Source: Escherichia phage D2. Taken from it: a DNA stretch of 49,197 nucleotides. How positions within the stretch are numbered: the stretch's first letter is position 1; each line of letters begins with the position of its first letter. The position numbers and the translations under genes were made by a program. This document shows, one piece after another, positions 15,408 through 48,794 of the stretch. The DNA lies in sequence record OM475427; one strand, written 5' to 3'. The notes under the pieces are model-generated. The model had not been told where the DNA came from. It ran no database searches and was given only the letters and a program-made list of their open reading frames with translations.

Positions 15408-18400
15408 ATGGGTAAAGGAAGCAGTAAGGGGCATACCCCGCGCGAAGCGAAGGACAACCTGAAGTCCACGCAGTTGCTGAGTGTGATCGATGCCATCAGC
15501 GAAGGGCCGATTGAAGGTCCGGTGGATGGCTTAAAAAGCGTGCTGCTGAACAGTACGCCGGTGCTGGACACTGAGGGGAATACCAACATATCCGGTGTCA
15601 CGGTGGTGTTCCGGGCTGGTGAGCAGGAGCAGACTCCGCCGGAGGGATTTGAATCCTCCGGCTCCGAGACGGTGCTGGGTACGGAAGTGAAATATGACAC
15701 GCCGATCACCCGCACCATTACGTCTGCAAACATCGACCGTCTGCGCTTTACCTTCGGTGTACAGGCACTGGTGGAAACCACCTCAAAGGGTGACAGGAAT
15801 CCGTCGGAAGTCCGCCTGCTGGTTCAGATACAACGTAACGGTGGCTGGGTGACGGAAAAAGACATCACCATTAAGGGCAAAACCACCTCGCAGTATCTGG
15901 CCTCGGTGGTGATGGGTAACCTGCCGCCGCGCCCGTTTAATATCCGGATGCGCAGGATGACGCCGGACAGCACCACAGACCAGCTGCAGAACAAAACGCT
16001 CTGGTCGTCATACACTGAAATCATCGATGTGAAACAGTGCTACCCGAACACGGCACTGGTCGGCGTGCAGGTGGACTCGGAGCAGTTCGGCAGCCAGCAG
16101 GTGAGCCGTAATTATCATCTGCGCGGGCGTATTCTGCAGGTGCCGTCGAACTATAACCCGCAGACGCGGCAATACAGCGGTATCTGGGACGGAACGTTTA
16201 AACCGGCATACAGCAACAACATGGCCTGGTGTCTGTGGGATATGCTGACCCATCCGCGCTACGGCATGGGGAAACGTCTTGGTGCGGCGGATGTGGATAA
16301 ATGGGCGCTGTATGTCATCGGCCAGTACTGCGACCAGTCAGTGCCGGACGGCTTTGGCGGCACGGAGCCGCGCATCACCTGTAATGCGTACCTGACCACA
16401 CAGCGTAAGGCGTGGGATGTGCTCAGCGATTTCTGCTCGGCGATGCGCTGTATGCCGGTATGGAACGGGCAGACGCTGACGTTCGTGCAGGACCGACCGT
16501 CGGATAAGACGTGGACCTATAACCGCAGTAATGTGGTGATGCCGGATGATGGCGCGCCGTTCCGCTACAGCTTCAGCGCCCTGAAGGACCGCCATAATGC
16601 CGTTGAGGTGAACTGGATTGACCCGAACAACGGCTGGGAGACGGCGACAGAGCTTGTTGAAGATACGCAGGCCATTGCCCGTTACGGTCGTAATGTTACG
16701 AAGATGGATGCCTTTGGCTGTACCAGCCGGGGGCAGGCACACCGCGCCGGGCTGTGGCTGATTAAAACAGAACTGCTGGAAACGCAGACCGTGGATTTCA
16801 GCGTCGGCGCAGAAGGGCTTCGCCATGTACCGGGCGATGTTATTGAAATCTGCGATGATGACTATGCCGGTATCAGCACCGGTGGTCGTGTGCTGGCGGT
16901 GAACAGCCAGACCCGGACGCTGACGCTCGACCGTGAAATCACGCTGCCATCCTCCGGTACCGCGCTGATAAGCCTGGTTGACGGAAGTGGCAATCCGGTC
17001 AGCGTGGAGGTTCAGTCCGTCACCGACGGCGTGAAGGTAAAAGTGAGCCGTGTTCCTGACGGTGTTGCTGAATACAGCGTATGGGAGCTGAAGCTGCCGA
17101 CGCTGCGCCAGCGACTGTTCCGCTGCGTGAGTATCCGTGAGAACGACGACGGCACGTATGCCATCACCGCCGTGCAGCATGTGCCGGAAAAAGAGGCCAT
17201 CGTGGATAACGGGGCGCACTTTGACGGCGAACAGAGTGGCACGGTGAATGGTGTCACGCCGCCAGCGGTGCAGCACCTGACCGCAGAAGTCACTGCAGAC
17301 AGCGGGGAATATCAGGTGCTGGCGCGATGGGACACACCGAAGGTGGTGAAGGGCGTGAGTTTCCTGCTCCGTCTGACCGTAACAGCGGACGACGGCAGTG
17401 AGCGGCTGGTCAGCACGGCCCGGACGACGGAAACCACATACCGCTTCACGCAACTGGCGCTGGGGAACTACAGGCTGACAGTCCGGGCGGTAAATGCGTG
17501 GGGGCAGCAGGGCGATCCGGCGTCGGTATCGTTCCGGATTGCCGCACCGGCAGCACCGTCGAGGATTGAGCTGACGCCGGGCTATTTTCAGATAACCGCC
17601 ACGCCGCATCTTGCCGTTTATGACCCGACGGTACAGTTTGAGTTCTGGTTCTCGGAAAAGCAGATTGCGGATATCAGACAGGTTGAAACCAGCACGCGTT
17701 ATCTTGGTACGGCGCTGTACTGGATAGCCGCCAGTATCAATATCAAACCGGGCCATGATTATTACTTTTATATCCGCAGTGTGAACACCGTTGGCAAATC
17801 GGCATTCGTGGAGGCCGTCGGTCGGGCGAGCGATGATGCGGAAGGTTACCTGGATTTTTTCAAAGGCAAGATAACCGAATCCCATCTCGGCAAGGAGCTG
17901 CTGGAAAAAGTCGAGCTGACGGAGGATAACGCCAGCAGACTGGAGGAGTTTTCGAAAGAGTGGAAGGATGCCAGTGATAAGTGGAATGCCATGTGGGCTG
18001 TCAAAATTGAGCAGACCAAAGACGGCAAACATTATGTCGCGGGTATTGGCCTCAGCATGGAGGACACGGAGGAAGGCAAACTGAGCCAGTTTCTGGTTGC
18101 CGCCAATCGTATCGCATTTATTGACCCGGCAAACGGGAATGAAACGCCGATGTTTGTGGCGCAGGGCAACCAGATATTCATGAACGACGTGTTCCTGAAG
18201 CGCCTGACGGCCCCCACCATTACCAGCGGCGGCAATCCTCCGGCCTTTTCCCTGACACCGGACGGAAAGCTGACCGCTAAAAATGCGGATATCAGTGGCA
18301 GTGTGAATGCGAACTCCGGGACGCTCAGTAATGTGACGATAGCTGAAAACTGTACGATAAACGGTACGCTGAGGGCGGAAAAAATCGTCGGGGACATTGT

Positions 18401-18797
18401 AAAGGCGGCGAGCGCGGCTTTTCCGCGCCAGCGTGAAAGCAGTGTGGACTGGCCGTCAGGTACCCGTACTGTCACCGTGACCGATGACCATCCTTTTGAT
18501 CGCCAGATAGTGGTGCTTCCGCTGACGTTTCGCGGAAGTAAGCGTACTGTCAGNCCAACAGTCATACTGGTATTCAACCTGTAAGCTGCAGGTGCTGAAG
18601 AACGGACAGGAAATCTTTCAGCAACCCGCGACGGATGTCAGCAGGGTATTTTCATCAGTCATTGATATGCCTNGTGGAGTGCAGGTATACAGATTAATCC
18701 GGCAGCGTCCGTCGTTGTTGATATTGCTTATGAAGGCTCCGGCAGTGGCGACTGGCGTACTGACGGATTCATCGTTGGGGTCGGTTATAAATTCTGA
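15408..18797 (+). CDS. J: Tail tip/host specificity protein J; apparent frameshifts near the 3' end coincide with ambiguous bases
   Basis: 1058-aa ORF 15408-18584 is lambda J-like. Frame moves to +1 near n at 18554 and back near n at 18672; the last segment (..[31 protein letters not shown]) is again in the start frame, and total length is a multiple of 3. Confidence 0.8.
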
Positions 18798-18819
18798 TTA
18801 GCCAGGTAACACAGTGTTA

Positions 18820-18850
18820 TGACAGCCCGCCGGAACCGGTGGGCTTTTTT
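18820..18850 (+). terminator. Putative rho-independent terminator downstream of J
   Basis: Hairpin GCCCGCCGG..CCGGTGGGC followed by TTTTTTGT just before the stf start; no lom-like gene is present between J and stf. Confidence 0.4.
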
Positions 18851-20874: not shown

Positions 20875-21300
20875 ATGGAATTACAGGACTGGCGAAAAGA
20901 ACCTCGTAAAAACTATTCGAATGAATTCAAACTTCGTATGGTGGAACTGGCATCACAACCTGGAGCTTGTGTTGCACAGATTGCACGTGAAAATGGCGTC
21001 AATGATAATGTTATTTTCAAATGGCTCAGGCTCTGGCAGAACGAAGGGCGTGTTTCGCGGCGTCTTCCGGTAACGACCTCTTCTGACACTGGCGTTGAAT
21101 TATTACCTGTAGAAATAACGCCGGATGAGCAGAAAGAACCTGTGGCGGCCATTGCGCCGTCTTTATCCACTTCCACTCAGACCAGAGTCAGTGCCAGTTC
21201 CTGCAAGGTGGAATTCCGTCACGGTAACATGACGCTGGAAAATCCATCGCCAGAGCTGCTCACAGTGTTGATCCGTGAACTGACCGGGAGGGGAAGATGA
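20875..21300 (+). CDS. tnpA: IS66 family accessory protein TnpA (orf1)
   Basis: 141 aa; HTH-containing N-terminus (NYSNEFKLRMVELASQPGACVAQIARENGVNDNVIFKWL) typical of IS66 orf1. Confidence 0.85.
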   Translation: MELQDWRKEPRKNYSNEFKLRMVELASQPGACVAQIARENGVNDNVIFKWLRLWQNEGRVSRRLPVTTSSDTGVELLPVEITPDEQKEPVAAIAPSLSTSTQTRVSASSCKVEFRHGNMTLENPSPELLTVLIRELTGRGR

Positions 21301-21647
21301 TCTCACTCCCATCAGGTACCCGTATCTGGCTCGTTGCCGGCGTTACCGATATGCGTAAATCCTTCAACGGACTGGGAGAACAGGTACAACATGTGCTGAA
21401 TGATAATCCCTTCTCCGGTCACCTGTTTATCTTCCGTGGCCGACGGGGTGACACCGTCAAAATTCTTTGGGCTGATGCTGATGGTCTGTGCCTGTTCACC
21501 AAACGCCTGGAGGAAGGCCAGTTTATCTGGCCTGCGGTACGTGACGGCAAGGTATCCATTACCCGCTCGCAACTGGCAATGCTCCTCGATAAGCTGGACT
21601 GGCGTCAGCCAAAAACATCCAGCCGTAACTCACTGACAATGTTGTAA
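21297..21647 (+). CDS. tnpB: IS66 family accessory protein TnpB (orf2)
   Basis: 116 aa; MISLPSGTRIWLVAGVTDMRKSFNGLGEQVQ... characteristic IS66 Orf2; 4-nt overlap with tnpA. Confidence 0.85.
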   Translation: MISLPSGTRIWLVAGVTDMRKSFNGLGEQVQHVLNDNPFSGHLFIFRGRRGDTVKILWADADGLCLFTKRLEEGQFIWPAVRDGKVSITRSQLAMLLDKLDWRQPKTSSRNSLTML

Positions 21648-21677
21648 AAAACTCCTGACCGCATTATAAAAACGGTC

Positions 21678-23277
21678 ATGAGTCAGAAATACCTCATTCG
21701 CATCGCAGAGCTGGAAAGGTTGCTCTCTGAGCAGGCTGAAGCCCTCCGTCAGAAAGACCAGCAACTGAGTCTGGTTGAAGAGACGGAAGCCTTCCTGCGC
21801 TCTGCACTGACACGTGCCGAAGAAAAGATCGAAGAAGATGAACGGGAAATAGAACATCTGCGGGCTCAGATAGAAAAACTGCGCCGGATGCTGTTCGGTA
21901 CCCGTTCTGAAAAACTGCGTCGTGAAGTTGAACTGGCTGAGGCTCTGCTGAAACAACGTGAACAGGACAGCGATCGTTACAGTGGGCGGGAAGACGATCC
22001 TCAGGTTCCCCGCCAGTTGCGACAGTCGCGCCATCGTCGTCCGTTACCGGCACACCTTCCCCGTGAAATACACCGCCTGGAGCCAGAAGAAAGCTGTTGC
22101 CCGGAGTGTGGCGGTGAGCTGGATTATCTGGGGGAAGTCAGCGCTGAACAGCTGGAACTGGTGAGCAGTGCCCTGAAAGTGATCCGCACAGAACGGGTAA
22201 AAAAAGCCTGTACAAAATGTGACTGTATTGTTGAAGCACCGGCGCCGTCCCGCCCGATAGAGCGTGGTATCGCGGGCCCCGGATTACTTGCCCGCGTGTT
22301 AACGGGAAAATACTGCGAACATCTGCCACTGTATCGTCAGAGTGAAATCTTTGCCCGCCAGGGTGTCGAACTGAGCCGGGCCTTACTCTCCAACTGGGTT
22401 GACGCGTGCTGCCAGTTAATGACACCGGTGAATGATGCCCTGTACCGTTATGTAATGAATACCCGCAAGGTTCACACTGATGACACACCGGTAAAGGTAC
22501 TGGCACCGGGTCAGAAAAAGGCGAAAACAGGGCGTATCTGGACGTATGTCCGGGATGATCGCAATGTGGGTTCGTCATCTCCTCCAGCGGTCTGGTTCGC
22601 GTACTCGCCGAACCGGCAGGGGAAACACCCGGAGCAACACCTCCGCCCCTTCCGGGGTATCCTGCAGGCGGATGCGTTCACAGGTTACGACAGGTTGTTC
22701 AGTGCAGAACGTGAAGGTGGTGCACTGACAGAAGTTGCGTGCTGGGCCCATGCCCGGCGAAAAATCCACGATGTATACATCAGCAGCAAAAGTGCGACGG
22801 CAGAAGAAGCCCTGAAGCGAATCAGTGAACTGTACGCCATCGAGGATGAAATACGGGGATTACCGGAGTCAGAGCGTCTTGCGGTCAGGCAGAAGAAGAG
22901 CAAACTGTTACTGGACTCACTGCATGCATGCATGGTGGAGAAAAATGCCACGCTATCCAAAAATCCAGACTGGGAGAATGGTTCAGCTGTGTACTGAATC
23001 AGTGGGGCGCACTCTGTTATTACAGTGTTGACGGTCAGGCGGAGGCAGACATAATGCCGCGGAAAAAGCCCTTTGTGCCATCTGTCTCGGAAATAAAAAC
23101 TTTATGTTCTTCGGCGGCGAGCGCAGTGCACTGTTGTATGGGCTTATCGGCACTTGCCTTCTGAACGNNATNGATCCGGAAGCGTATCTGCGCCATATNC
23201 TGAGCATACTGCCGGAATGGCCCTCCAACCGTGTTGACGAACTCCTGCCATGGAACGTAGTTCTCACCAATAAATAA
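21678..23277 (+). pseudogene. tnpC: IS66 family transposase TnpC, interrupted by two frameshifts
   Basis: Frame 0 ORF 21678-22997 (439 aa, coiled-coil N-terminus, zinc-finger CPECG), continues in another frame (KSRLGEWFSCVLNQWGALCYYSVDGQAEAD) and then a third (NAAEKAL..FMFFGGERSALLYGLIGTCLLN..YLRH.LSILPEWPSNRVDELLPWNVVLTNK*). The shifts at ~22955 and ~23045 are not at n positions. Confidence 0.7.
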
Positions 23278-23442
23278 GCGTCAATACGGTGCTCCGTTGA
23301 CGCTTACTTTAATCCGTTTTCTGAGCTTAGATTTTTCTGTTCCTACCCAGACCGTGGATTTGGAATTCATTTTTTGTCAGGTCAATGCTAATCGTTAAAA
23401 CGGCCATAACGCACCTCCACTGGAAGGTTTATCAGAGGTCGT

Positions 23443-23721
23443 ATGAAAGATTTAACTTTGAAGTTTCATGACAAACTGCAGTTTAAGGCCTTCCTGTCAT
23501 CTCTTGGCTGGGCGGAAGATGAAGACCTCCAGAATAAACTGTTAGTTGATGAAATTGGTTTCACCTACACAGAAACAGGGGTAACAGAAGAGGGAGAACC
23601 TGTCTGTATCCGGAATGATGGTTATTTTGTCAACATTCGCATTCTTGATGACTTGTTTGATGTTTCTGTATTCTCTGATTATGTCGTGGAGCTGGAAACA
23701 CCGCTTCGGGAATGGAGCTGA
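23443..23721 (+). CDS. Hypothetical protein (92 aa)
   Basis: ORF with ATG start between IS66 and sitD; no family recognised. Confidence 0.3.
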   Translation: MKDLTLKFHDKLQFKAFLSSLGWAEDEDLQNKLLVDEIGFTYTETGVTEEGEPVCIRNDGYFVNIRILDDLFDVSVFSDYVVELETPLREWS

Positions 23722-23733
23722 AAGGAGGAAATA

Positions 23734-24027
23734 ATGGATATAAGCCCCTTACTTCATGCACTTTGTGCTGTGGCTGCGCAGATACTGGTTGGTCTTTTTA
23801 CCGGAAACTGGGCTTACGGAGCGATAGCCGGTTGTACGTTCTTCATTGCGCGTGAACATACCCAGGCAGAATATCGCTGGATTGAAATGTTCGGGCATGG
23901 CAAGCGAATGAATATGCCGTGGTGGGGCGGTTTTGATCCGCGAGCTTGGGATGTGGCAAGCCTGATGGATTTTGCTGTGCCGGTGGTGGCGTGTCTGCTG
24001 GTCTGGCTGTTGGTTAATCGTGGGTGA
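23734..24027 (+). CDS. Hypothetical membrane protein (97 aa)
   Basis: ORF with hydrophobic segments; preceded by GGAGG-like RBS (aaaggaggaaataATG); no family recognised. Confidence 0.3.
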   Translation: MDISPLLHALCAVAAQILVGLFTGNWAYGAIAGCTFFIAREHTQAEYRWIEMFGHGKRMNMPWWGGFDPRAWDVASLMDFAVPVVACLLVWLLVNRG

Positions 24028-24119
24028 AAAAAGGTGANCTGNANATNGCAACGGAGGAAGAAACCNCGTTGCTGGAAGCCNGGAANAAGTATCGGGTGTT
24101 GCTGNNCTCGGATGTTGTG

Positions 24120-24977
24120 CTAATTGGGTGATAACAGATCCTGTGTATGGGAGTTTCCCTTTTTGCGTGCGTTGATGCTGGTAACGGCAAACGTCATGAT
24201 GAACAAAACCGCGAATAAGACGACAATCGTCGGAGCTGGTGCGCTGTCGATAAAAAAGGACAACCAGACACCAGTCATTGACACTATTACCGATATGCCA
24301 GTCGCCAGTAGGAGCGCAATATGAAAGCGTTGTGTCAGGAGTACCGCAATGGCGCCAGGCGCAATGAGCAGAGAAATGGAGAGAATGATACCTACCGCTT
24401 TCAGCGTCGCCACAATGGTCAGAGAGACCATGCACAGCAGCCCATAATGCAGCCATCTCGTATGCAAACCGCTTACCTGCGCCTGTTGATAATCAAAGCT
24501 GAACAGCAAAAAATCCCGCCATTTTACGCTAATAACAAGTGTAACCAGCCCGGCAATAANCATCGTCTGGATTATATCGCCGATGGTTATCCCGAGCATG
24601 TCGCCGAANAGAATATGGTCAAGATGTNCGTCTGGTTTGACTGCAATATACAAGATCAGANCTGCGGCAAACATGCCAGANAANACNATCCCCATCACTG
24701 TATCTTGCTTGATTCGGCTGTTGTCTTTCAGGTATCCCGTCGCCACCGCGCAGAATACTCCGGCGACGAATGCCCCTGTAGCCAAAGGTAACCCCAGAAT
24801 CCAGGCAAGCACGATGCCAGGAAAAACCGCATGACTCATCGCGTCACCCATCAGTGCCCAACCTTTCAGGACCAGAAAGACCGACAGCAGCGCACAGGGT
24901 ATGGAAACTACCAGTGAAATCAGCAGTGCGTGACTCATAAAGGTGAACTGCAGTGGCTCCAGTAATAATGCCATCAT
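24120..24977 (-). CDS. sitD: Mn/Fe ABC transporter permease SitD (contains ambiguous bases)
   Basis: 285-aa polytopic membrane protein, paralogous to the upstream permease; several n/X positions. Confidence 0.85.
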   Translation of the reverse strand: MMALLLEPLQFTFMSHALLISLVVSIPCALLSVFLVLKGWALMGDAMSHAVFPGIVLAWILGLPLATGAFVAGVFCAVATGYLKDNSRIKQDTVMGXXXSGMFAAXLILYIAVKPDXHLDHIXFGDMLGITIGDIIQTMXIAGLVTLVISVKWRDFLLFSFDYQQAQVSGLHTRWLHYGLLCMVSLTIVATLKAVGIILSISLLIAPGAIAVLLTQRFHIALLLATGISVIVSMTGVWLSFFIDSAPAPTIVVLFAVLFIMTFAVTSINARKKGNSHTQDLLSPN

Positions 24978-25831
24978 GAGCGATCCTCCAGCGCCTTATG
25001 CGCACGCCGACGATTTGCCAAAAGCCCATGGGTGGGCGCAAAGACAAATGCTAAAAGAAACAGCAGTGTCTGCGCCACCACGATGATTCCACCTGTCGCG
25101 CCGTCCAGAAAGTAACTGACCCACGCGCCGAGGAAACTGGTTACACTGCCAATAGTTACAGCAATCATGAGCAGGCGGGGAAAACGATCGGTTAACAACC
25201 ATGCTGTTGCACCGGGAGTCACCACCAGACAGATCACCAGAAAGGCACCAACCGTTTGCAGCGCCGCAACGGTCGAAACCGACAGCAGGGTGAAGAAGAG
25301 GAGTTTTAATCTGCCCGGATGCAATCCAATAGCACGGGCGTGATTCTCGTCGAAAAAGGTCACCATAAGATCTTTCCATTTGAAAAAAAGCACGATGATC
25401 GAGAGAATGCCAATGATAGTGAGTTGCAGGATATCCGCCGGATCGATTGCCAGAATATTGCCCAGGACGATGGTCTGAATGTTCACAGATGTCGGGTTCA
25501 ATGACACCATAAACAGCCCCAGGCCAAAAAAGGACGAGAAGATCAGACCGATGATGGCATCTTCTTTTAAGCGGGTGCGTTGGTTAAGAAACAGCATGCT
25601 GCCCGCAGCCAGTCCGCCGGAAAAGAAGGCTCCCAGAGAAAACGGAAGCCCCAGCATATATGCCCCCGCAACACCCGGGACAATAGAGTGCGACAACGCA
25701 TCGCCAATCAGCGACCAGCCTTTTAGCATCAGATAGCATGACAGGAAAGCGCAGAGACCGCCGACCATCGCCGAGACCCACATCGCATTGAGCATATATT
25801 CATAGCTGAAGGGTTCCAGTAGCACGTTCAT
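24974..25831 (-). CDS. sitC: Mn/Fe ABC transporter permease SitC
   Basis: 285 aa, ABC-3 family permease; 4-nt overlaps with sitB and sitD. Confidence 0.9.
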
Positions 25832-26655
25832 CTTTCTTCCCTCTGCACCGCTGACGGTCGATGAGCCACAAAAGGGCGTTCATCGTCAGTAATAATGCTT
25901 TCTTCCGAGCCGTTAAGTGTGACATGGCGCAGTACGCCGCTAAAAGCCAGCTCTAGGTTCTCGGCTGTAAAAGTGGTGTCTGTCGGCCCGCTTGCCAGGA
26001 CGGTGCCTTTGACCATGACCGTATAATCGCAAAATGTCGTGACGGATCCGAGATTGTGTGTTGAGACAAGCATCGTTTTGCCTTCCGCGCGTAACTCCCT
26101 CAACAGGCTGATGATTTTGGCTTCGGTTTTCACATCAACGCCAGTAAAAGGTTCATCCAGCAGGATCACATCACCCTGCTGTGCAATCGCTCTCGCCAGA
26201 AAGACGCGTTTCTTTTGTCCACCGGAAAGCTCGCCGATTTGTCGATGGCGAAAATTCACCATATCGACACGTTCCAGCGCATCGGTGACAATTTGACGAT
26301 CCCTCTTTTTGGCGATACGCAACATACCCATATGCCCATAGCGGCCCATCATCACCACATCTTCCACCAGTACAGGAAATGACCAGTCAACCTCTTCTGA
26401 CTGAGGGACGTAGGCAACCAGGTTTTTCTGTAACGCCTGTCGCGTGGGAATACCCAGAACAGATATCTTTCCGCTGGTCAGACGCACAAATCCCATAATC
26501 GCTTTAAACAACGTCGATTTTCCGGAACCGTTTACCCCAACCAGAGCGGCAATAGATCCACTTGGTACTGTGAAGGATGCATCGCGCAGTGCTGTGTGCC
26601 CGTTATGCCAGGTGACAGCAACATCATTAACGACAATGCCTGCAGATTGCATCAT
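25828..26655 (-). CDS. sitB: Mn/Fe ABC transporter ATP-binding protein SitB
   Basis: Walker [13 protein letters not shown] signature LSGGQKKR, Walker B ILLDEP. Confidence 0.9.
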
Positions 26656-27569
26656 TATTTCTCCCTTTTCCCGGCTTTAATTCCCTGTACCAGCGTACTG
26701 GTAGTAACCTTAAGAAGGTCGATATACGTCGGTACCGGGCCGTTTTCTGTGCTCAGGGAATCGACATAGAGCACACCGCCGTAGTGTGCGCCGGTTTCAC
26801 GCGCAACCTGACGCGCTGGTTTATCGGAAATCGTACTCTCGCTAAAGACTGCCGGGATATGATTTTTCTTAACTATATCAACAACCTTACGTACCTGCTG
26901 CGGTGTTCCTTGTTGATCGGCATTAATCGGCCACAGATAAAGCTCTTTTAGCCCCAAATCGCGTGCGAGATAAGAAAAAGCCCCTTCACTGGTGACCATC
27001 CATCGCTGATTCTCAGGGAGTTCCGTAATCTGCTTACGCAGGGGGGCAAGGGTTTGGGTAATCTTGGCTTTATAAGTATCGGCATTGCGTTGGTAGGTTT
27101 GTGCATTTGCCGGATCGTATTTTATCAACGCATCACGAATATTATCGACGTAAATCAGAGCATTATCTGGCGACATCCATGCATGGGGGTTAGGTTTGCC
27201 CTCATAGGGTCCTTCGGTGATCCCTACAGGCGTCACACCCGAAGAGACAATTACTTCTGGAACCCCATTGAGATGCTGGTAAAAGCGTTGGAACCACAAT
27301 TCCAGATTCATACCATTGGCGAGAATCAGTTGTGCCCCCTGCGCACGTTTAATATCGCCAGGGGTAGGCTGATACTCATGAATTTCTGCACCAGGCTTGG
27401 TTATGGATGAGACTTCTGCAGCATCTCCCGCCACGTTTTTGGCCATATCCGCGATGATGGTAAATGTTGTAATGACCTTAAATTTTTCAGTTGCACTTGC
27501 CTGAAATGCGATCGAGCAGGTGAGTGCGAGGCCCCCCAAGAGCATGGTTACTTTTTTTATTGAGCGCAT
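26655..27569 (-). CDS. sitA: Periplasmic Mn/Fe-binding protein SitA
   Basis: 304 aa with signal peptide; cluster-9 metal-binding protein, first gene of a sitABCD-type operon. Confidence 0.9.
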
Positions 27570-28366: not shown

Positions 28367-28647
28367 CTGGTGCAAACATCGGTGACGAATGCGCCCTGTT
28401 TGAAGCCACCCACGGTACTGCGCCGAAATATGCCGGTCAGGACAAAGTAAATCCTGGCTCTATTATTCTCTCCGCTGAGATGATGCTGCGCCATATGGGT
28501 TGGACTGAAGCGGCTGACCTGATTGTTAAAGGTATGGAAGGCGCAATCAATGCCAAGACCGTAACTTATGACTTCGAACGTCTGATGGAAGGCGCTAAGC
28601 TGCTGAAATGTTNCGAGTTTGGCGACGCGATCATCAAGAACATGTAA
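28367..28647 (+). pseudogene. icd: 3' fragment of icd (isocitrate dehydrogenase), last ~93 codons, at the phage attachment site
   Basis: Translation [92 protein letters not shown] matches the Icd C-terminus; upstream sequence is unrelated to icd. Confidence 0.85.
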
Positions 28648-28671
28648 TCACTACATGTGTTAAATATTTAA

Positions 28672-28698
28672 ACGGGCGTGTTATACGCCCGTTGTTTT
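28672..28698 (+). terminator. Rho-independent terminator after the icd 3' end
   Basis: Hairpin ACGGGCGTG-TTAT-ACGCCCGT followed by TGTTTTAT. Confidence 0.5.
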
Positions 28699-28753
28699 AT
28701 GATGATGTAAAATCTTCCCCAAAACTTTCCCCAAAACNNNNNNTGGCTATTTT

Positions 28754-33484: not shown

Positions 33485-33549
33485 TCTTTGGGACTCCTGG
33501 CTGATTANNTNTNNNNAANGNGTTTCCATCCGTCACGTAATTTACGCAT
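33451..33549 (-). CDS. cIII: cIII-like protein (N-terminally different from lambda; interrupted by n bases; boundaries approximate)
   Basis: Minus-strand ATG preceded by AGGAG, reading MRKLRDGWK..., matching the lambda cIII core (ITRKLRDGWKRLIDILNQ). An n run (33508-33521) interrupts the reading. Confidence 0.45.
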
Positions 33550-39180: not shown

Positions 39181-39198
39181 TTGGGGGAGAGGGAAGTC

Positions 39199-39537
39199 AT
39201 GAAAAAACTAACCTTTGAAATTCGATCTCCAGCACATCAGCAAAACGCTATTCACGCAGTACAGCAAATCCTTCCAGACCCAACCAAACCATTATGGCCA
39301 TCTGTTGGTACAATTATTTGTTATTGTGCATCATTCTGGTTATTAGCTCAGACGCTGGCTTATATACCTACAGGGATTGCTTATGCTATCTGGTCAGGAG
39401 TCGGTATTGTCCTGATTAGCTTACTATCATGGGGATTTTTCGGCCAACGGTTGGACCTGCCAGCCATTATAGGCATGATGTTGATTTGTGCCGGTGTGTT
39501 GGTTATTAATTTATTGTCACGAAGCACACCACATTAA
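39199..39537 (+). pseudogene. In-frame fusion of ninB 5' end (32 codons) to emrE 3' end (about 80 codons)
   Basis: MKKLTFEIRSPAHQQNAIHAVQQILPDPTKP (lambda NinB N-terminus) joined to WPSVGTIICYCASFWLLAQTLAYIPTGIAYAIWSGVGIVLISLLSWGFFGQRLDLPAIIGMMLICAGVLVINLLSRSTPH (EmrE from about residue 31); lacks EmrE TM1. Confidence 0.7.
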
Positions 39538-39792
39538 AAATAATTTATTTTTAAACGACTAAAATATGGAGGTTCGTATATTTGTATGGGCCTCGTTTTA
39601 TGCTTTTTGTTAATGTCTTTAGTTTTTATTCATTCTTTTGATCTTTCAAGACCATGGTGTAAGAAAATTGCAATACGATTATTGTTGTATATTCAAGATA
39701 ATGTGACCTTAATTGTCTTTTTAAATAAAAATTAAACAAAAATCATATCTCACCACTAAGGTTTATAAAAGCATACTTTAGCAGGTGTCACC

Positions 39793-41319
39793 ATGAAAAA
39801 AGCCATAGCATATATGCGATTTTCATCACCAGGTCAGATGTCTGGTGATTCATTAAACCGCCAGAGAAGGCTTATTACTGAATGGCTAAAGGTAAATAGT
39901 GATTATTACCTTGATACCGTAACGTATGAAGATTTGGGGTTAAGCGCATTCAATGGAAAGCATGCACAATCAGGAGCTTTTTCGGAATTTTTAGATGCTA
40001 TAGAACATGGTTACATATTGCCAGGGACTACATTGTTAGTTGAAAGTCTGGACAGACTTTCAAGAGAAAAAGTCGGTGAAGCGATTGAGCGTCTGAAATT
40101 GATTTTGAATCACGGTATTGATGTTATAACTCTTTGCGATAATACAGTCTATAATATAGACTCATTGAATGAGCCATATTCATTAATAAAAGCCATACTT
40201 ATAGCACAAAGGGCAAATGAAGAAAGCGAGATAAAGTCAAGTCGGGTTAAATTATCATGGAAGAAAAAACGGCAGGATGCACTGGAATCAGGCACGATTA
40301 TGACGGCGTCTTGTCCGAGATGGCTCTCATTGGATGACAAAAGAACAGCTTTTATTCCAGACCCCGACAGGGTGAAAACGATTGAGCTAATTTTTAAACT
40401 CAGGATGGAAAGGCGATCATTGAATGCAATAGCTAAGTATTTAAATGATCATGCTGTAAAAAATTTTTCAGGAAAAGAAAGTGCATGGGGGCCTTCTGTA
40501 ATTGAAAAATTATTAGCGAATAAAGCTCTGATAGGTATATGCGTACCTTCATATCGTGCAAGAGGGAAAGGGATAAGTGAAATCGCTGGCTATTATCCCA
40601 GAGTCATATCAGATGATTTGTTTTACGCTGTACAGGAAATTCGGTTGGCACCTTTTGGTATTAGCAATAGTAGCAAGAATCCTATGCTAATAAATCTACT
40701 TCGAACAGTTATGAAGTGTGAGGCTTGTGGTAATACCATGATTGTTCATGCGGTATCTGGACGTTTGCATGGCTATTATGTTTGTCCGATGAGAAGATTA
40801 CATCGATGTGACAGGCCATCAATAAAAAGAGATTTGGTTGATTATAATATCATTAATGAATTGCTTTTTAATTGTAGCAAAATTCAACCAGTTGAAAACA
40901 AGAAAGATGCTAATGAAACTTTAGAGTTAAAAATTATTGAGCTTCAGATGAAAATTAATAATTTAATCGTTGCATTGTCTGTCGCGCCTGAAGTTACCGC
41001 TATAGCAGAGAAAATAAGACTATTAGATAAGGAATTACGAAGGGCTTCGGTATCATTAAAAACTTTGAAGAGTAAAGGGGTGAGTTCACTTGGTGATTTT
41101 CATGCTATTGATTTAACCAGTAAAAATGGGCGAGAGCTATGTCGTACACTTGCCTATAAAATATTCGAAAAAATTATAATTAATACAGATAATAAAACCT
41201 GTGATATCTATTTTATGAATGGCATTGTTTTTAAACACTATCCTTTAATGAAAGTAATATCCGCCCAGCAGGCGATAAGTACTCTTAAATATATGGTTGA
41301 TGGTGAGGTTTATTTTTGA
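39793..41319 (+). CDS. ybcK: Large serine recombinase (DLP12 YbcK-like)
   Basis: 508 aa; N-terminal resolvase/invertase catalytic domain (AYMRFSSPGQ..SLNRQ) and large C-terminal recombinase/zinc-ribbon domain; AT-rich. Confidence 0.85.
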   Translation: MKKAIAYMRFSSPGQMSGDSLNRQRRLITEWLKVNSDYYLDTVTYEDLGLSAFNGKHAQSGAFSEFLDAIEHGYILPGTTLLVESLDRLSREKVGEAIERLKLILNHGIDVITLCDNTVYNIDSLNEPYSLIKAILIAQRANEESEIKSSRVKLSWKKKRQDALESGTIMTASCPRWLSLDDKRTAFIPDPDRVKTIELIFKLRMERRSLNAIAKYLNDHAVKNFSGKESAWGPSVIEKLLANKALIGICVPSYRARGKGISEIAGYYPRVISDDLFYAVQEIRLAPFGISNSSKNPMLINLLRTVMKCEACGNTMIVHAVSGRLHGYYVCPMRRLHRCDRPSIKRDLVDYNIINELLFNCSKIQPVENKKDANETLELKIIELQMKINNLIVALSVAPEVTAIAEKIRLLDKELRRASVSLKTLKSKGVSSLGDFHAIDLTSKNGRELCRTLAYKIFEKIIINTDNKTCDIYFMNGIVFKHYPLMKVISAQQAISTLKYMVDGEVYF

Positions 41320-41643
41320 GTAATAATCACTTTTTCAACCGTGCTATGGTATGAAAGTAAAGTAACTAATATGATATTAACTATCTTGAACGAAGCGCCC
41401 TGAGCTATAGTTTTACTATAGGCACTGTCACTGGATGTTGGCATTCTTGCTCTAGTAGCTCAACAATACCCAATCACAAAACAATTCACTGATAACAAAC
41501 TTTGTGCACGTGCTTGGTTATGGCGAACAGGTGATGTTAACCTCTTGCCAGAATGCCACTCCACTTCATTAAGTATCTGAGCACCGAGAGGCTGGTCACG
41601 CCCCCATTAAAAATAATTTCTTTTGAATCGAGTGAAATAGGTT

Positions 41644-41670
41644 AGCCCGCATAAGTGCGGGCTGCTTTTT
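41644..41670 (+). terminator. Rho-independent terminator between convergent ybcK and esterase genes
   Basis: Hairpin AGCCCGC-ATAAGT-GCGGGCT followed by GCTTTTT. Confidence 0.45.
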
Positions 41671-42712
41671 ACAGGTCAGCGTTTGTTTTTTGTTGTTGGG
41701 TAGCGGTTTTTATGGGGGTTCCCAGGTTTTTAGTAAACCACTCAACAACTCTGTTTATAATAATTGGCTGATACCATGTATTATCGCCATGCTCGGCCCC
41801 TTCTACCAGCACGTACTCAGCGTTATCACCGTTCTTCTTCAACATCCTGAATAGTTTGGCGCTTTGCTCAGGTGAAACCAGAGTGTCTTTGCTACCATGC
41901 ATAATAAGAAATGGGGGTTTTACTCCTTTCATATGTCCGATTGGACTGGCGTTTAGCGCTTTTTCTTTTGACGCTGTGATGGGGGCTCCCGCAAAATTTC
42001 TGAATGCAGGGCCATTGATCATTAAGGCTTCGGTTACGGCAGGAGAGCGATGAACCTCCTGCACTGATTCAGGGAACCCCTCGCCAATATTCAACAAGTC
42101 AGAAATCCCATAAAGTGTGGCAACTGCCTGAACATCTGAGGATTGCTGAAGAAAGTCACCTTTATCAAAGGTTTTGTCACCATTTGTAGTTCCCATCATC
42201 TGGGCAAGCCATCCACCGGCAGAGTCACCCAGAACTCCGATTCTTTGAGGATCAATCCCATAATTGCTGGCATGCTCTCTCAGGTAACGTATTGCAGCTT
42301 TTCCATCCTCAACTGGTGCTGGAAATGTATCAGGAATTGTTCTGTATTCTACAGCGGCCACAACAAAACCAGCTTCTGCCAGAGCCATTCTCATTTCAAT
42401 AAATTTGTCATGTTCAGAAGACATGAATCCGCCGCCGGGATAATAAATAATGGCTGGTTTTAAATCATTTGTTCGCGGGACAAGAACTGACATGTGAAGC
42501 TGTCTGACAGAACGAGTTCCTTTTATCTGGGAATAAACAACATCACCAATGAGATCGACCTGGTTTCTGGTCGGTGAAACACTAATGATATCTGCACCCG
42601 GGGTGTAACCAGGAAGATTAGTCTGGACAGGTGTTGCACAACTCCCGACCGACATGGCCATTGACATACCATACAATAGTGTTGCAGATGATAATATCTT
42701 GTTAATTTTCAT
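41669..42712 (-). CDS. Secreted alpha/beta-hydrolase (esterase/lipase-like), probable lipoprotein
   Basis: Signal peptide with lipobox-like SVGSC; HGG-type oxyanion motif (YYPGGGF); nucleophile elbow GDSAGG; C-terminal HG (GAEHGD). Confidence 0.7.
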   Translation of the reverse strand: MKINKILSSATLLYGMSMAMSVGSCATPVQTNLPGYTPGADIISVSPTRNQVDLIGDVVYSQIKGTRSVRQLHMSVLVPRTNDLKPAIIYYPGGGFMSSEHDKFIEMRMALAEAGFVVAAVEYRTIPDTFPAPVEDGKAAIRYLREHASNYGIDPQRIGVLGDSAGGWLAQMMGTTNGDKTFDKGDFLQQSSDVQAVATLYGISDLLNIGEGFPESVQEVHRSPAVTEALMINGPAFRNFAGAPITASKEKALNASPIGHMKGVKPPFLIMHGSKDTLVSPEQSAKLFRMLKKNGDNAEYVLVEGAEHGDNTWYQPIIINRVVEWFTKNLGTPIKTATQQQKTNADL

Positions 42713-44649: not shown

Positions 44650-45033
44650 ATGCGTGATATTCAGATGGTTCTTGAGCGTTGGGGAGCGTGGGCGGCTAAT
44701 AATCATGAAGATGTGACCTGGTCGTCCGTTGCCGCCGGTTTTAAGGGATTAATTCCTTCAAAAGTAAAATCTCGCCCGCAATGTTGTGACGATGACGCGA
44801 TGATCATTTGCGGGTGCATGGCCCGTCTGAAAAAGAACAACAGCGATTTACACGATTTATTAGTAGATTATTATGTATGTGGTATGACATTCATGTCACT
44901 GGCAAGTAAGCATTGCTGCTCGGATGGTTATATCGGGAAAAGGTTACAGAAGGCTGAGGGCATAATTGAAGGGATGTTAATGGCATTAGATATCCGGTTA
45001 GATATGGATATCGTTGCTAATAATTCTAATTGA
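44650..45033 (+). CDS. quuD: Late gene antiterminator Q (QuuD / Q21-82 type)
   Basis: [39 protein letters not shown]...; cysteine-rich zinc-binding region ([12 protein letters not shown]); followed by a terminator about 140 nt downstream. Confidence 0.8.
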
Positions 45034-45059
45034 TATGCAATTGTTTACTAAAAGTTATT

Positions 45060-45083
45060 AAAAATGGGGCGTGGAAACGCCCC
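45060..45083 (-). terminator. Possible minus-strand terminator downstream of nmpC
   Basis: On the minus strand, GGGGCGUUUCCACGCCCC followed by AUUUUUAAUAACUUUU. Confidence 0.3.
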
Positions 45084-45170
45084 CAAAATAAAGGGTAATA
45101 TATAACAGAAGGTTTATATAGTAAGAAGCAAGGTAGTGCTTCTAAAGGAAGTGGCTTGAGGGCTCCACTT

Positions 45171-45210
45171 ATATGTTGCGGAGGCAAAGCCTCCCGCAAC
45201 ATATCTTTTT
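45171..45210 (+). terminator. tR'-like rho-independent terminator downstream of Q (end of a 6S-like late leader)
   Basis: 15-bp stem ATATGTTGCGGAGGC/GCCTCC(C)GCAACATAT with AAA loop, followed by CTTTTTCG. Confidence 0.5.
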
Positions 45211-45221
45211 CGTAAGTCAGA

Positions 45222-46304
45222 TTAGAACTGATAAACCAGACCTACAGCGACGATGTCGTCGGTATCAATACCAGCTGTTTTGGTAAACTTACTATCGTCA
45301 ATTAAGTTGATTTTGTAATCAACAAAAGTGGACATGTTTTTATTAAAGTAGTAAGTAGCACCGACATCGACATACTTGACTAAGTCTCGGTCACCATGAA
45401 CACCAAGGTCTTTACCTTTTGACTGAAGGTAAGCAACAGATGGTCGCAGACCGAAGTCAAACTGATATTGTGCTACTGCTTCAAAGTTTTGTGCTTTGTT
45501 TGCAATATGGTTATTACCAAAAACGGTCATATTCTGAGTTTCAGAATATGTGGTAGCCAGATAGATATTGTTCGCATCATATTTCAGGCCTGCAGCCCAT
45601 ACTTCCGCATTTTTGCCGGAGGCATTGAATTTGCTCTTACCATAGGCGACCTGACCGTCAGTGCGATCTGATTTAGCATAGGTTGCACCCACGCCGAATC
45701 CTTCATACTCATAAGTAGTGGAGAAACCGAAACCATCACCATTGACTTCAGTTACGTCAGTGCGGTCATTTTTACCCTGATACTGAGCAGCAAAGTTCAG
45801 GCCATCGACCAGACCAAAGAAGTCGTTGTTACGATAAGTTGCAACACCAGTAGTGCGACCAGTCATGAACACATCTGTTTGGGTCCAGGTATCACCACCG
45901 AATTCTGGCAGGACGTCAGTCCACGCACCGATGTCGTATGCTACACCGTAGTTACGGCCGTAATCGATTGAGCCGTAATCACCAAATTTCAGGCCTGCAA
46001 ATGCAAGACGGGTTTTGTCTTTGGAAGAACCTTGAGATTCAGCACGGTTGCCTTTGAATTCATATTCCCACTGACCGAAACCAGTCAGTTGATCGTTGAT
46101 TTGGGTTTCACCTTTGAAGCCAAGACGGGCATAAGTAGTATCACCATCATCTGCATCATTAGAGGAGAAGTAGTGCTTGGCATTAACTTTCCCGTATAGA
46201 TCCAGCTTGTTACTGTCTTTATTATAAATTTCAGCTGCCTGAGCAGACATCGCCATCAGTACTGATGCAGCTACAGCAGAAATTGCCACTGTTAATTTTT
46301 TCAT
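45222..46304 (-). CDS. nmpC: Outer membrane general porin (NmpC/OmpD/OmpC family), apparently intact
   Basis: 360 aa; signal peptide ending AQA; mature N-terminus AEIYNKD..KLDLYGK; C-terminal VGLVYQF with terminal Phe. Confidence 0.85.
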
Positions 46305-46893
46305 TGTACGCCCTTTTTTTTGAACTATTATTAAAAAATGATGTCACTGCGCGATAAATATTCATCTAATCAATGCGATTATTTCAAGATGTAAGTTTTA
46401 GTTTCTCATTTAATTTGTGAAGTAGATCTCTATTTTTATCTGAACCTTTTCTATCTAATCCTATTCATGGCTCTTGTTTGAACGAAAATAAATCTATTAG
46501 CTAATTTATATTAATGGCACTTATTTATAAGCGCTCTATAATTCTTTAGCTTAATTTAAACAAACTAAAAATAACATCGGAAATTATTCATTGGTTATTT
46601 GTTGAAGTTTTCTTATGTATTTGTGGTGGTGTTTTGAACACTCGGTGGCATTCTCACAAATATCATTTAGTAGTTTACGTACGTAAAAAATTGGTTATGC
46701 TGTTAAGAGTGGTTACTTCGTCACACAGCTTAAACCCGCCGTCGAGCGGGTTTTTCCATTTTTTGAGTCTCGATATTAGCTGATAACCCAATACCTGAGT
46801 TATTCACTGACTCCGAATCTGTTACGTTTCTGCCTTTATTGCGATACGTAGTATCCCCTTAATTTACACCCGCTTTGTCTGCGAGGTGGGGTT

Positions 46894-47109
46894 ATGAAAT
46901 CCATGGATAAGTTAACAACGGGTGTCGCCTATGGCACCTCAGCAGGTAGTGCCGGGTACTGGTTTTTACAGTTGCTCGATAAAGTCACTCCGTCACAGTG
47001 GGCTGCAATCGGTGTGCTGGGTAGCCTGGTTTTTGGCCTGCTGACGTATCTGACAAATCTTTATTTCAAGATTAAAGAAGACAGGCGTAAGGCTGCGAGA
47101 GGAGAGTAA
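46894..47109 (+). CDS. essD: Pinholin (S21-type class II holin) with dual-start motif
   Basis: 71 aa, [26 protein letters not shown]..., two TMDs; Met1-Lys-Ser-Met4 dual start as in phage 21 S21. Confidence 0.85.
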
Positions 47110-47113
47110 TCCA

Positions 47114-47606
47114 ATGACTCAAGACTATGAACTGGTTGTGAAAGGAGTCCGGTGGGGCTGTTGCCATAGCGTCTGTGCTCATCACTGGTCCGAGTGGTGA
47201 CGATGGCCTGGAAGGTGTCAGCTACATACCATACAAAGATATCGTTGGCGTATGGACTGTATGTCACGGACACACCGGAAAAGACATCATGCTCGGTAAA
47301 ACGTATACCGAAGCAGAATGCAAAGCCCTCCTGAATAAAGACCTTGCCACTGTCGCCAGACAAATTAACCCGTACATCAAAGTCGATATACCGGAAACAA
47401 CGCGCGGCGCTCTTTGCAGCAGATTAAGGAGCGTGGCGCTTTANCNNNNNNTNNATCGTGGTGATATCCGTCAGGCAATCGACCGTTGCAGCAATATCTG
47501 GGCTTCACTGCCGGGCGCTGGTTATGGTCAGTTCGAGCATAAGGCTGACAGCCTGATTGCAAAATTCAAAGAAGCGGGCGGAACGGTCAGAGAGATTGAT
47601 GTATGA
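47114..47606 (+). pseudogene. R: Endolysin, chimeric: P21-type lysozyme 5' part joined out of frame to lambda R transglycosylase 3' part
   Basis: Frame 0 (47175-~47405) encodes SAR-lysozyme-like [79 protein letters not shown]. From ~47411 another frame reads [10 protein letters not shown]; after an n run, [49 protein letters not shown] (lambda R C-terminus). The 5' ATG at 47114 is in yet another frame. Confidence 0.6.
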
Positions 47607-48046
47607 GCAGAGTCACCGCGATTATCTCCGCTCTGGTTATCTGCATCATCGTCTGCCTGTCATGGGCTGTTAATCATTACCGTGATAACGCCATTACCTA
47701 CAAAGCCCAGCGCGACAAAAATGCCAGAGAACTGAAGCTGGCGAACGCGGCAATTACTGACATGCAGATGCGTCAGCGTGATGTTGCTGCGCTCGATGCA
47801 AAATACACGAAGGAGTTAGCTGATGCTAAAGCTGAAAATGATGCTCTGCGTGANNNNNTTNCCGCTGGTCGTCGTCGGTTGCACATCAAAGCAGTCACCG
47901 CCGCCTCCGGCGTGGATGATGGTGCCAGCCCCAGACTTACTGACACCGCTCAACGGGATTATTTCGTTCTCAGAGAGCGCATCGAAACCGTAACTAACCA
48001 ATTGAATGGTCTGCAAGAGTATGTGAGATCACAGTGTTCATATTAG
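47603..48046 (+). CDS. Rz: Spanin inner-membrane subunit Rz (i-spanin)
   Basis: [83 protein letters not shown]... matches lambda Rz; n run at 47845-47852. Confidence 0.85.
47823..47993 (+). CDS. Rz1: Spanin outer-membrane lipoprotein Rz1 (o-spanin), embedded in Rz in the +1 frame
   Basis: Embedded [13 protein letters not shown]...[43 protein letters not shown]: lipobox (VVGC) and proline-rich mature region. Confidence 0.7.
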
Positions 48047-48084
48047 AAAAGTCTTATCATAAGATTTTTGTATATGGATGCATT

Positions 48085-48459
48085 ATGTCTCAATACGCTC
48101 AAGCCGCTTTAAATGCTTATCAATTGGTTGCTCATAACTCAATGTCTCCTCGTGATGCATGGGAGGCTGCTGTCGCTGAGGTTACAGAAAGCGAATCGGC
48201 AAGAAAGAAGGGATGCCCAAGGGCAACGTTTCTCGCTCTGGCGGATAGCGGTTATCTGAAGAATGTAAAACAACATCATGGGGAGAAAAAGATCGGTAAG
48301 TTGTACCAAAGGGCAATTGAAGTTGCGAATCTGATTCTTGATTTACCCGGAATTAGCAAAGCTGAGCTAGTTGATAAAACTTGCTATAAAGACAGGCAAG
48401 GGTCTTATGACATTGCTCTAACTCTCGCTCAGCACGGATTACTCCAGCGTCCTCAATAA
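48085..48459 (+). CDS. Hypothetical protein (124 aa) between Rz and cos
   Basis: ORF starting MSQYAQAALNAYQLVAHNSMSPRDAWEAAVAEV...; no family recognised. Confidence 0.35.
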   Translation: MSQYAQAALNAYQLVAHNSMSPRDAWEAAVAEVTESESARKKGCPRATFLALADSGYLKNVKQHHGEKKIGKLYQRAIEVANLILDLPGISKAELVDKTCYKDRQGSYDIALTLAQHGLLQRPQ

Positions 48460-48557: not shown

Positions 48558-48794
48558 TTACCGGGATTCGATAAAGGTATTCAAGCCTGACACATTATGC
48601 GCTGTATCGTCGCCGTATTCCTGCATTAACCATGACCGTAGCCCGACGGGGAATTCCTTCTGCGCGAGTGTGCGGGCGTATTCAGTGNNNNGATTTGTAT
48701 TGTCTGAAGTTGTTTTTACGTTAAGTTGATGCAGATCAATTAATACGATACCTGCGTCATAATTGATTATTTGACGTGGTTTGATGGCCTCCAC
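48558..48794 (-). CDS. Hypothetical protein (78 aa, contains ambiguous bases)
   Basis: Minus-strand ORF between Rz and cos; n positions inside; no family recognised. Confidence 0.2.
   Translation of the reverse strand: MEAIKPRQIINYDAGIVLIDLHQLNVKTTSDNTNXXTEYARTLAQKEFPVGLRSWLMQEYGDDTAHNVSGLNTFIESR

Follow-up and report, generated by a model that had tools for sequence, protein, structure and literature searches.

An open reading frame on the minus strand of the Escherichia phage D2 genome (sequence record OM475427), lying between the late regulator Q and the lysis genes, raises the question of whether this temperate phage carries an intact outer membrane porin and, if so, what the gene would do for a lysogen. 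The whole stretch of DNA analysed, referred to here as the window, is 49,197 nucleotides long. The original prediction, made from the letters of the window, had proposed a complete NmpC-type porin gene that is transcribed opposite to the late operon, is flanked by terminators and is probably expressed from its own promoter in the lysogen. We therefore evaluated the integrity, identity, setting and likely regulation of this gene.

The window is an essentially complete temperate lambdoid genome of the phage-21-like kind (genus Bievrevirus). An alignment with the collinear phage 4A7 covers 94% of the first 25 kb at 96.7% identity, and the structural genes resemble those of phage 21. Pfam searches identified an integrase and a CI-type repressor, together with other cargo comprising an IS66-family element, a sitABCD-like metal ABC transporter, an SMR efflux protein, a serine recombinase and an esterase. 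The lysis cassette, also recognised with Pfam, lies on the plus strand beyond the porin and is of the phage-21 type, with an S gene that has a dual start, a lysozyme and Rz. S itself (46894..47109, plus strand) begins MKSM..., matches the holin family PF04971 at 121.7 bits and was compared with the phage 21 annotation. The record is a consensus assembly with 34 short N runs and a scrambled 3' end of the J gene, none of which fall inside the porin cassette. The J C-terminus of 4A7 is 54% identical to that of phage 434 and is also divergent from that of lambda; in D2 this is the scrambled part of the gene.

The porin ORF (45222..46304, minus strand) is uninterrupted. It opens with ATG and runs for 360 codons with no internal stop and no N base; the stop codon occupies 45222-45224 and the mature protein is encoded by 45225-46235. 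The first 23 codons (46236..46304, minus strand) specify a signal peptide cleaved at AQA|AE. Two lines of evidence place this site: the chains of solved mature porins align from residue 24 of the D2 protein, and the lc record of phage PA-2, whose product is identical to the D2 porin over residues 1-60, carries an annotation for the same 23-residue signal peptide. The mature protein begins AEIYNK and ends ...VGLVYQF. Re-inspection thus bore out the prediction of a complete gene of 360 codons with a signal peptide and a C-terminal Phe.

The protein matches the Pfam family Porin_1 (PF00267) along the full profile (positions 1-337 of 337), with a score of 503.9 bits where the cutoff is 23.7 (E=3e-151). 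Since the profile is matched end to end at this score, the porin is not a chance ORF. Residues 24-360 align with the whole chains of OmpK37, OmpC, OmpK36, PhoE and OmpF, with E values from 5e-137 to 1e-111. Among NCBIfam models, the protein scores 520.7 bits against the OmpC model NF007841 (cutoff 484), which is a subfamily model and not an equivalog, and it did not reach the thresholds of the PhoE and OmpF equivalogs. In an alignment of NmpC, OmpC, OmpN, PhoE and OmpF, residues K39, R60, R99, R150 and D124 are invariant, as are the loop-3 motif PEFGGD (P133-D138) and the terminal YQF. With the exception of the YQF end, these are residues that line the pore and its constriction zone in OmpF and OmpC. 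D2 therefore carries a real and complete general porin gene, which is probably functional.

The identity of the allele was resolved by comparison with known porins. The D2 protein is 91-92% identical to NmpC of E. coli K-12, for which the comparison sequence was rejoined across the IS5 insertion to give 365 residues, and 91% identical to Lc of PA-2. Identity to the chromosomal porins of K-12 is 68% for OmpN, 66% for OmpC, 65% for PhoE and 63% for OmpF. The alignment thus upholds the assignment as an NmpC-type porin (91-92% to K-12 NmpC versus 66% to OmpC). The chromosomal porins OmpC, OmpF, PhoE and OmpN, and the solved OmpC, OmpK36 and OmpK37, share the fold family, the pore residues, PEFGGD and YQF with the D2 protein; in contrast to them, the D2 gene (63-68% identity) is phage-borne, has neither micF nor micC as a neighbour, and carries an IpeX 3'UTR of its own. 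Orthology to OmpC, as implied by the name that PGAP assigns, was considered and ruled out. Given the 66% identity to K-12 OmpC and the phage context without micF, the name OmpC is a family label only. OmpD, the name that many databases give to proteins of the D2 type, belongs to a chromosomal gene of Salmonella and serves here as a database label only. The literature treats nmpC as an E. coli gene similar to ompD (PMC3333887).

The closest well-described relatives are the porins of PA-2 and of the K-12 prophage DLP12 (qsr'). PA-2 Lc (J02580) resembles the D2 porin in its 91% protein identity, its identical signal peptide, its position adjoining the lysis genes on the opposite strand, its identical upstream CRP sites and a 3'UTR that is 94% identical. 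It differs in length (365 residues against 360 in D2) and at the residue clusters 182-187, 217-228, 263-267, 303/306 and 335-346. DLP12 shares with D2 the quuD-nmpC-essD synteny, the porin (92% at the protein level), the ipeX region, a pR'-qut-tR' block that is 99% identical and a promoter region that is 92.5% identical. However, nmpC of DLP12 is interrupted by IS5, whereas the D2 copy is intact and mosaic. That the K-12 gene is disrupted at this position had been noted beforehand, and we could confirm the split by IS5B, which falls after codon 346. Nearer still are the genes of other Bievrevirus members. Over the 1040 nt aligned, gp64 of 4A7 has the same DNA sequence as the D2 porin gene; the Perceval porin, from a prophage of LF82, is one nucleotide away (V187A), with 359 of 360 residues identical. 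Within the cassette 4A7, Lambda_4C10 and Perceval show essentially no difference from D2; they are unlike it elsewhere, where D2 has its N runs and scrambled J 3' end.

Relative to K-12 nmpC the D2 gene is a mosaic, being 97-99% identical over nucleotides 1-300 and 63-87% identical over nucleotides 400-1040. Codons 1-148 contain 17 synonymous and no non-synonymous differences, and codons 149-346 contain 78 synonymous and 25 non-synonymous codon differences. Judged by these counts against K-12, the ORF is under purifying selection. The amino-acid changes relative to K-12 NmpC are grouped at residues 149/151, 182-187, 217-228, 263-267, 303/306 and 335-346. Because these clusters coincide with the sites of insertions and deletions relative to the solved porins, we infer that the variable positions correspond to surface loops L4-L8. 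At the protein level, the mosaic allele thus varies only within the C-terminal 60%.

The gene is widespread under a variety of names. At least 1000 public contigs encode exactly this 360-residue protein, under the names Lc, OmpD and OmpC, and it belongs to a cluster of 2741 proteins labelled 'outer membrane porin protein LC', 'OmpD', 'porin OmpC' and even 'PhoE'. The ORF was matched in 3140 of 5426 complete E. coli genomes, with a copy covering at least 80% in 2503 of the 5426; 1225 complete E. coli records (about a quarter) hold the porin gene at 99% identity or more. In one genome, the D2 allele is split by IS1. Among phages, the 2.5-kb segment from Q through the porin to S was found in 102 records, in which the porin is annotated as NmpC, OmpD or OmpC, and 35 of the phage records hold most of the segment. 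Phage '434B' was set aside as an independent carrier; it is a recombinant that took the IS5-disrupted qsr' region of K-12. The porin gene is thus already known and ordinary, annotated in public genomes and in isolated phages. Descriptions of the gene and its place in phages, of its control by CRP and of the IpeX RNA linked to it date from the 1970s to the 2000s.

We next consider the position of the cassette relative to the late genes. The D2 Q antiterminator (44650..45033, plus strand; 127 residues from the annotated start) is of the QuuD/Q933W type (PF06530, 180.6 bits), 100% identical to the Q of 4A7 and 80% identical to that of 933W over 120 residues. The homologue of the annotated pR'-qut-tR' block of 933W is found at 46672-46758, just upstream of S. 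It contains the late promoter pR' (46674..46701, plus strand), with a -35 element TTTACG at 46674-46679, a 16-nt spacer and a -10 element TATGCT at 46696-46701, followed immediately downstream by a qut-equivalent sequence (46702-46731, plus strand) and by tR' (46732..46764, plus strand). The latter, the terminator of the short late-leader RNA, lies approximately 130 nt upstream of S and aligns with the 933W terminator at 627-649; according to both terminator scan and folding, its hairpin (46732-46753) has a U-tract on the plus strand only. The whole block is 99% identical in DLP12, where pR' and qut are identical to those of D2.

An arrangement with pR' directly after Q, in the manner of phage 21 and 933W, would have placed the porin in antisense orientation within the late transcription unit. 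The possibility was rejected, as only a vestige resembling a -35 element is present there. Alignment with the end of Q and pR' of 933W located this vestige as the stretch TTTACTAAAAG (45044..45054, plus strand), which resembles the -35 region of a 933W-type pR'; because no usable -10 follows it, TTTACTAAAAG is probably a remnant of the junction. A consensus promoter match further upstream of the porin (ATGGCA-17-TATAAT, 46514-46542) was also rejected, being unsupported by homology. Phage 21 differs from D2 in this region in that its Q21 is unlike the Q of D2, the porin is absent and pR' directly follows Q. As read from these alignments, the porin cassette is inserted on the opposite strand between Q and the promoter that Q targets. 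With pR' beyond the porin, late transcription does not cross the cassette. The earlier description of the porin as transcribed opposite to the late operon therefore holds as regards the strand but is refined as regards position, since the cassette lies outside the late operon, between Q and pR'.

The terminators around the porin serve different transcripts. The porin transcript is predicted to end at an intrinsic hairpin (45066..45083, minus strand), GGGGCGUUUCCACGCCCC followed by AUUUUU, approximately 160 nt past the porin stop codon; the hairpin was detected by the terminator scan, and in the fold its U-tract is present on the minus strand only. A further terminator (45171..45210, plus strand) abuts the porin stop codon and is assigned to the Q transcript, which derives from pR. 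This element consists of a hairpin at 45171-45204 (-21.9 kcal/mol, z=-4.4) followed by CUUUUU, has no U-tract on the minus strand, and is conserved in K-12 and Perceval. The statement that the porin is flanked by terminators is thus literally correct, but it combined three functions, those of the porin terminator, the Q terminator and tR'. In particular, the terminator placed upstream of the porin does exist but is the tR' of the late leader.

Between the porin stop codon and its terminator the transcript would carry an IpeX-like 3'UTR of approximately 160-167 nt (45055..45221, minus strand), a feature that the original prediction did not include. The 188 bp separating the porin stop from the Q stop are approximately 94% identical to the ipeX region of K-12 and the lc 3'UTR of PA-2, which are identical to each other. 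On the porin strand the 3'UTR folds at -56.6 kcal/mol (z=-5.7). The region is present in 35 phage records, in each at 90% identity or more. Rfam searches of the whole genome at the gathering threshold, and of 44900-47000 at E<=1, returned nothing meaningful, and IpeX matched no family; the hits were sub-threshold terminator look-alikes only (sau-19, Trp_leader). According to reviews, IpeX of K-12 and PA-2 represses OmpC and OmpF (PMC12197685, PMC8065619). Since the D2 region differs from the tested K-12/PA-2 version at approximately 11 positions, with two bases that weaken one hairpin, we only assume that this function is retained.

On the other side of the gene, the 199 bp preceding the start codon (46305..46503, minus strand) are the homologue of the K-12 promoter PnmpC, with 92.5% identity to both K-12 and PA-2. 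Two CRP sites known from PA-2 can be placed on the minus strand of D2, a proximal one at 46413..46433 (J02580 1363-1383) and a distal one at 46708..46728 (J02580 1067-1087), and both are identical in D2, PA-2 and K-12. The distal site coincides in part with the stretch that is transcribed first from pR' on the opposite strand. A strict scan of the minus strand found no promoter hexamers for the porin, and a relaxed scan gave weak candidates only, such as TTGAAA-19-AATATT ending at 46357. In K-12, a 2024 study deleted the nmpC region from -199 to -1 and mapped the PnmpC start by 5'RACE; it describes CRP as an activator of this promoter and OmpR, IHF and MprA as repressors (PMC11677980). By analogy with these systems, the D2 porin is probably transcribed in the lysogen from its own promoter. 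The corresponding part of the original prediction gains indirect support from the PnmpC-homologous 199 bp, from the CRP sites and from the transcription of the Perceval gene described below.

Three other explanations of the locus were weighed against this evidence. The porin could be host DNA, either chromosomal OmpC or another fragment, misjoined to a phage contig; in E. coli genomes PGAP assigns it the name ompC, the protein scores above the cutoff of the NCBIfam OmpC subfamily model, and the window does show signs of consensus or chimeric assembly elsewhere. However, the protein is 66% identical to K-12 OmpC against 91-92% to NmpC and Lc, DLP12 and 35 independent phage records repeat the Q-porin-S arrangement, the 1040 nt aligned with the isolated phage 4A7 show no difference, and the cassette is free of N bases. 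Synteny and identity thus already refute a misjoin, to which we attach practically no probability. It is also conceivable that the main selected function of the cassette lies in its RNA, with the IpeX 3'UTR and the overlap with Q regulating host porins, the leakiness of late genes, or both, and with a largely dispensable porin protein. Such dispensability would explain why IS insertions are tolerated in the ORF, by IS5 in the K-12 allele and by IS1 in the D2-type allele of another genome, while the promoter and 3'UTR of K-12 are still conserved; the 3'UTR is 94% conserved compared with 75-79% for the adjacent 3' coding sequence, and an overlap of approximately 150 nt is predicted between the transcript of Q and that of the porin. 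Against this, the excess of synonymous over non-synonymous differences (17 versus 0 in codons 1-148, 78 versus 25 in codons 149-346) points to purifying selection on the ORF, which is intact in most carriers, including the 2503 genomes with a copy covering at least 80%, and a recombination breakpoint would account equally well for the change in conservation at the stop codon. We regard this explanation as very improbable.

The remaining alternative is that the gene is intact but quiescent, being silenced in the lysogen, for example by H-NS, OmpR or IHF acting on the AT-rich upstream DNA, so that a phenotype would appear only under special conditions or after mutation. The spacer upstream of the porin (46305-46893) is indeed AT-rich, at 33% G+C, the minus strand offers no strong consensus promoter, and OmpR, IHF and MprA are reported to act as repressors of PnmpC (PMC11677980). 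Furthermore, the title of Prilipov et al. 1998, as cited in PMC3333887, calls the intact nmpC of E. coli B 'quiescent', for which reason expression of the porin may depend on strain and conditions. Data from homologues speak against general silence. Perceval NmpC, 359/360 identical to the D2 protein, is listed among the morons transcribed 10-fold above the prophage background in the LF82 lysogen, grown in plain LB (PMC9928086), and PnmpC gives rise to the only detectable read-through ins5A transcript of K-12 (PMC11677980). In CFT073 both nmpC genes are preferentially expressed at 37 C at the level of RNA and protein; this strong temperature dependence would fit a conditionally silent gene, but the NmpC protein was detected at 37 C (PMC12890032). 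On balance, we consider a quiescent gene unlikely.

These considerations leave, with a probability that we put at roughly 0.88, the reading that D2 carries a classical lysogenic-conversion ('moron') module of lambdoid coliphages, one that swaps porins and here holds an intact NmpC/Lc allele. The integrity of the gene, its family, the identity of the allele, the anatomy of the cassette and the conservation of its regulatory elements were observed directly in the window. For its expression, for assembly of the protein and for repression of OmpC and OmpF, we infer the likely course from homologues and the literature. In the lysogen, the porin-swap cassette would be transcribed from its own sigma-70 promoter, a homologue of PnmpC, for which activation by CRP, repression by OmpR and IHF and a preference for 37 C are reported. 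The pre-protein would be exported via Sec and cleaved after AQA, and the BAM machinery would insert it through its C-terminal ...YQF signal, giving a 16-strand trimeric general diffusion pore. The same transcript would carry the structured IpeX-like 3'UTR of approximately 165 nt, which in K-12 and PA-2 lowers the synthesis of OmpC and OmpF post-transcriptionally. The overall outcome would be an exchange of porins, with altered permeability of the outer membrane and altered surface receptors for porin-dependent phages and colicins. Such a change in permeability and receptors is the classical lysogenic-conversion phenotype of PA-2 and Lc. The original prediction had anticipated an effect of this kind; by analogy with K-12 and PA-2, the IpeX-like 3'UTR is probably a further part of the mechanism.

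The convergent arrangement of the porin and Q allows us to hypothesise a further role for the cassette. From the strand-specific terminators, the Q mRNA is predicted to end at approximately 45210 and the porin/IpeX RNA at approximately 45060. Because these predicted ends overlap, the 3'UTR of Q and IpeX would be fully complementary over approximately 150 nt, and the convergent architecture is conserved in DLP12 and PA-2. The cassette might thus act as an antisense switch with the late regulator Q, a proposal that we consider unlikely and offer tentatively. If it were correct, leaky Q mRNA could be made less stable in the lysogen by plentiful porin/IpeX RNA, which would favour maintenance of the lysogenic state, by analogy with OOP and cII of lambda, and N-antiterminated read-through at induction could in turn shut off the porin and IpeX.

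The refined anatomy of the locus, namely the insertion between Q and pR', the convergent overlap and the mosaic allele, provides useful annotation detail for a kind of system that is not new. As common prophage cargo, a porin module of this type can alter the entry of antibiotics as well as the porin receptors available to phages and colicins. Because permeability and receptors can change in this way, the module deserves attention when E. coli lysogens are studied with regard to phage therapy or resistance.

Disruption of the porin gene by an insertion element was found in a second setting. In one E. coli genome (NZ_CP147065.1, 31348-33207) an allele 100% identical to the NmpC/Lc-type porin gene of the window is split by an IS1 element, and the IS5 disruption known from K-12 is therefore not the sole insertional inactivation of this gene. 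We also evaluated the deposited 'phage 434B' genome as a natural 434 with a porin gene. This was rejected, as the locus (OL657227.1, 41277-44868) holds the K-12 qsr' region, including the IS5-disrupted nmpC; 434B is a laboratory recombinant.

The window contains 34 short runs of N, with ambiguous bases clustered at scattered places. Examples lie at 23168-24687, 28613-28743, 33508-33521, 47444-47454, 47854-47861 and 48688-48691, and the endolysin and Rz genes are among the places affected. None of the 34 runs places an N within the porin cassette. These ambiguous bases suggest that the record represents a population consensus derived from a metagenome or virome. At the 3' end of gene J (18300-18830), N bases occur at 18554 and 18673. 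The J ORF stops at 18584 and encodes 1058 aa, compared with 1132 aa for J of both phage 4A7, which is collinear with the window, and lambda. Lambda-J-like sequence extends as far as ~18550, and is followed at ~18560-18680 by an out-of-frame match to 4A7 J, with divergence thereafter. The appearance of this 3' end is less that of a true pseudogene than of an assembly, consensus or chimeric, in which receptor-binding alleles were mixed.

Beyond the porin, the window carries several mobile elements and cargo genes. An IS66-family insertion element with three transposase ORFs (20875-23300) separates the side tail fibre gene from the sit operon, a placement shared with 4A7. Its large transposase ORF stops sooner than that of 4A7, at 22997 rather than 23291, upstream of the N bases at 23168-23199. 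The neighbouring phage cargo is a four-gene sitABCD-like iron/manganese ABC transporter on the minus strand (24120-27569), comprising a ZnuA-type binding protein, an ABC ATPase and two ABC-3 permeases, and it is likewise present in 4A7 and in the LF82 prophage Perceval. A separate cargo region (39181-42712), flanked by the replication genes and the nin region, encodes an SMR-family efflux protein (39181-39537) and a large serine recombinase (39793-41319), followed on the minus strand by an alpha/beta-hydrolase esterase (41669-42712). Immediately after Rz is a DUF6979 ORF (48034-48459); in lambda and phage 21 this place is occupied by bor, which is encoded on the opposite strand.

Upstream of the porin gene, the more distal of the two CRP sites given in the PA-2 lc record corresponds to 46708-46728, where it coincides with the initial transcribed (qut-equivalent) region of the late promoter pR' on the opposite strand. 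At the other end of the porin gene, Q (plus strand) and the porin, with its structured 3'UTR IpeX (minus strand), are transcribed convergently, and their predicted 3' ends overlap by ~150 nt (45060-45210). This convergent layout is conserved in both the K-12 prophage DLP12 and PA-2. Given the predicted overlap, the 3'UTR of Q would be antisense to IpeX.
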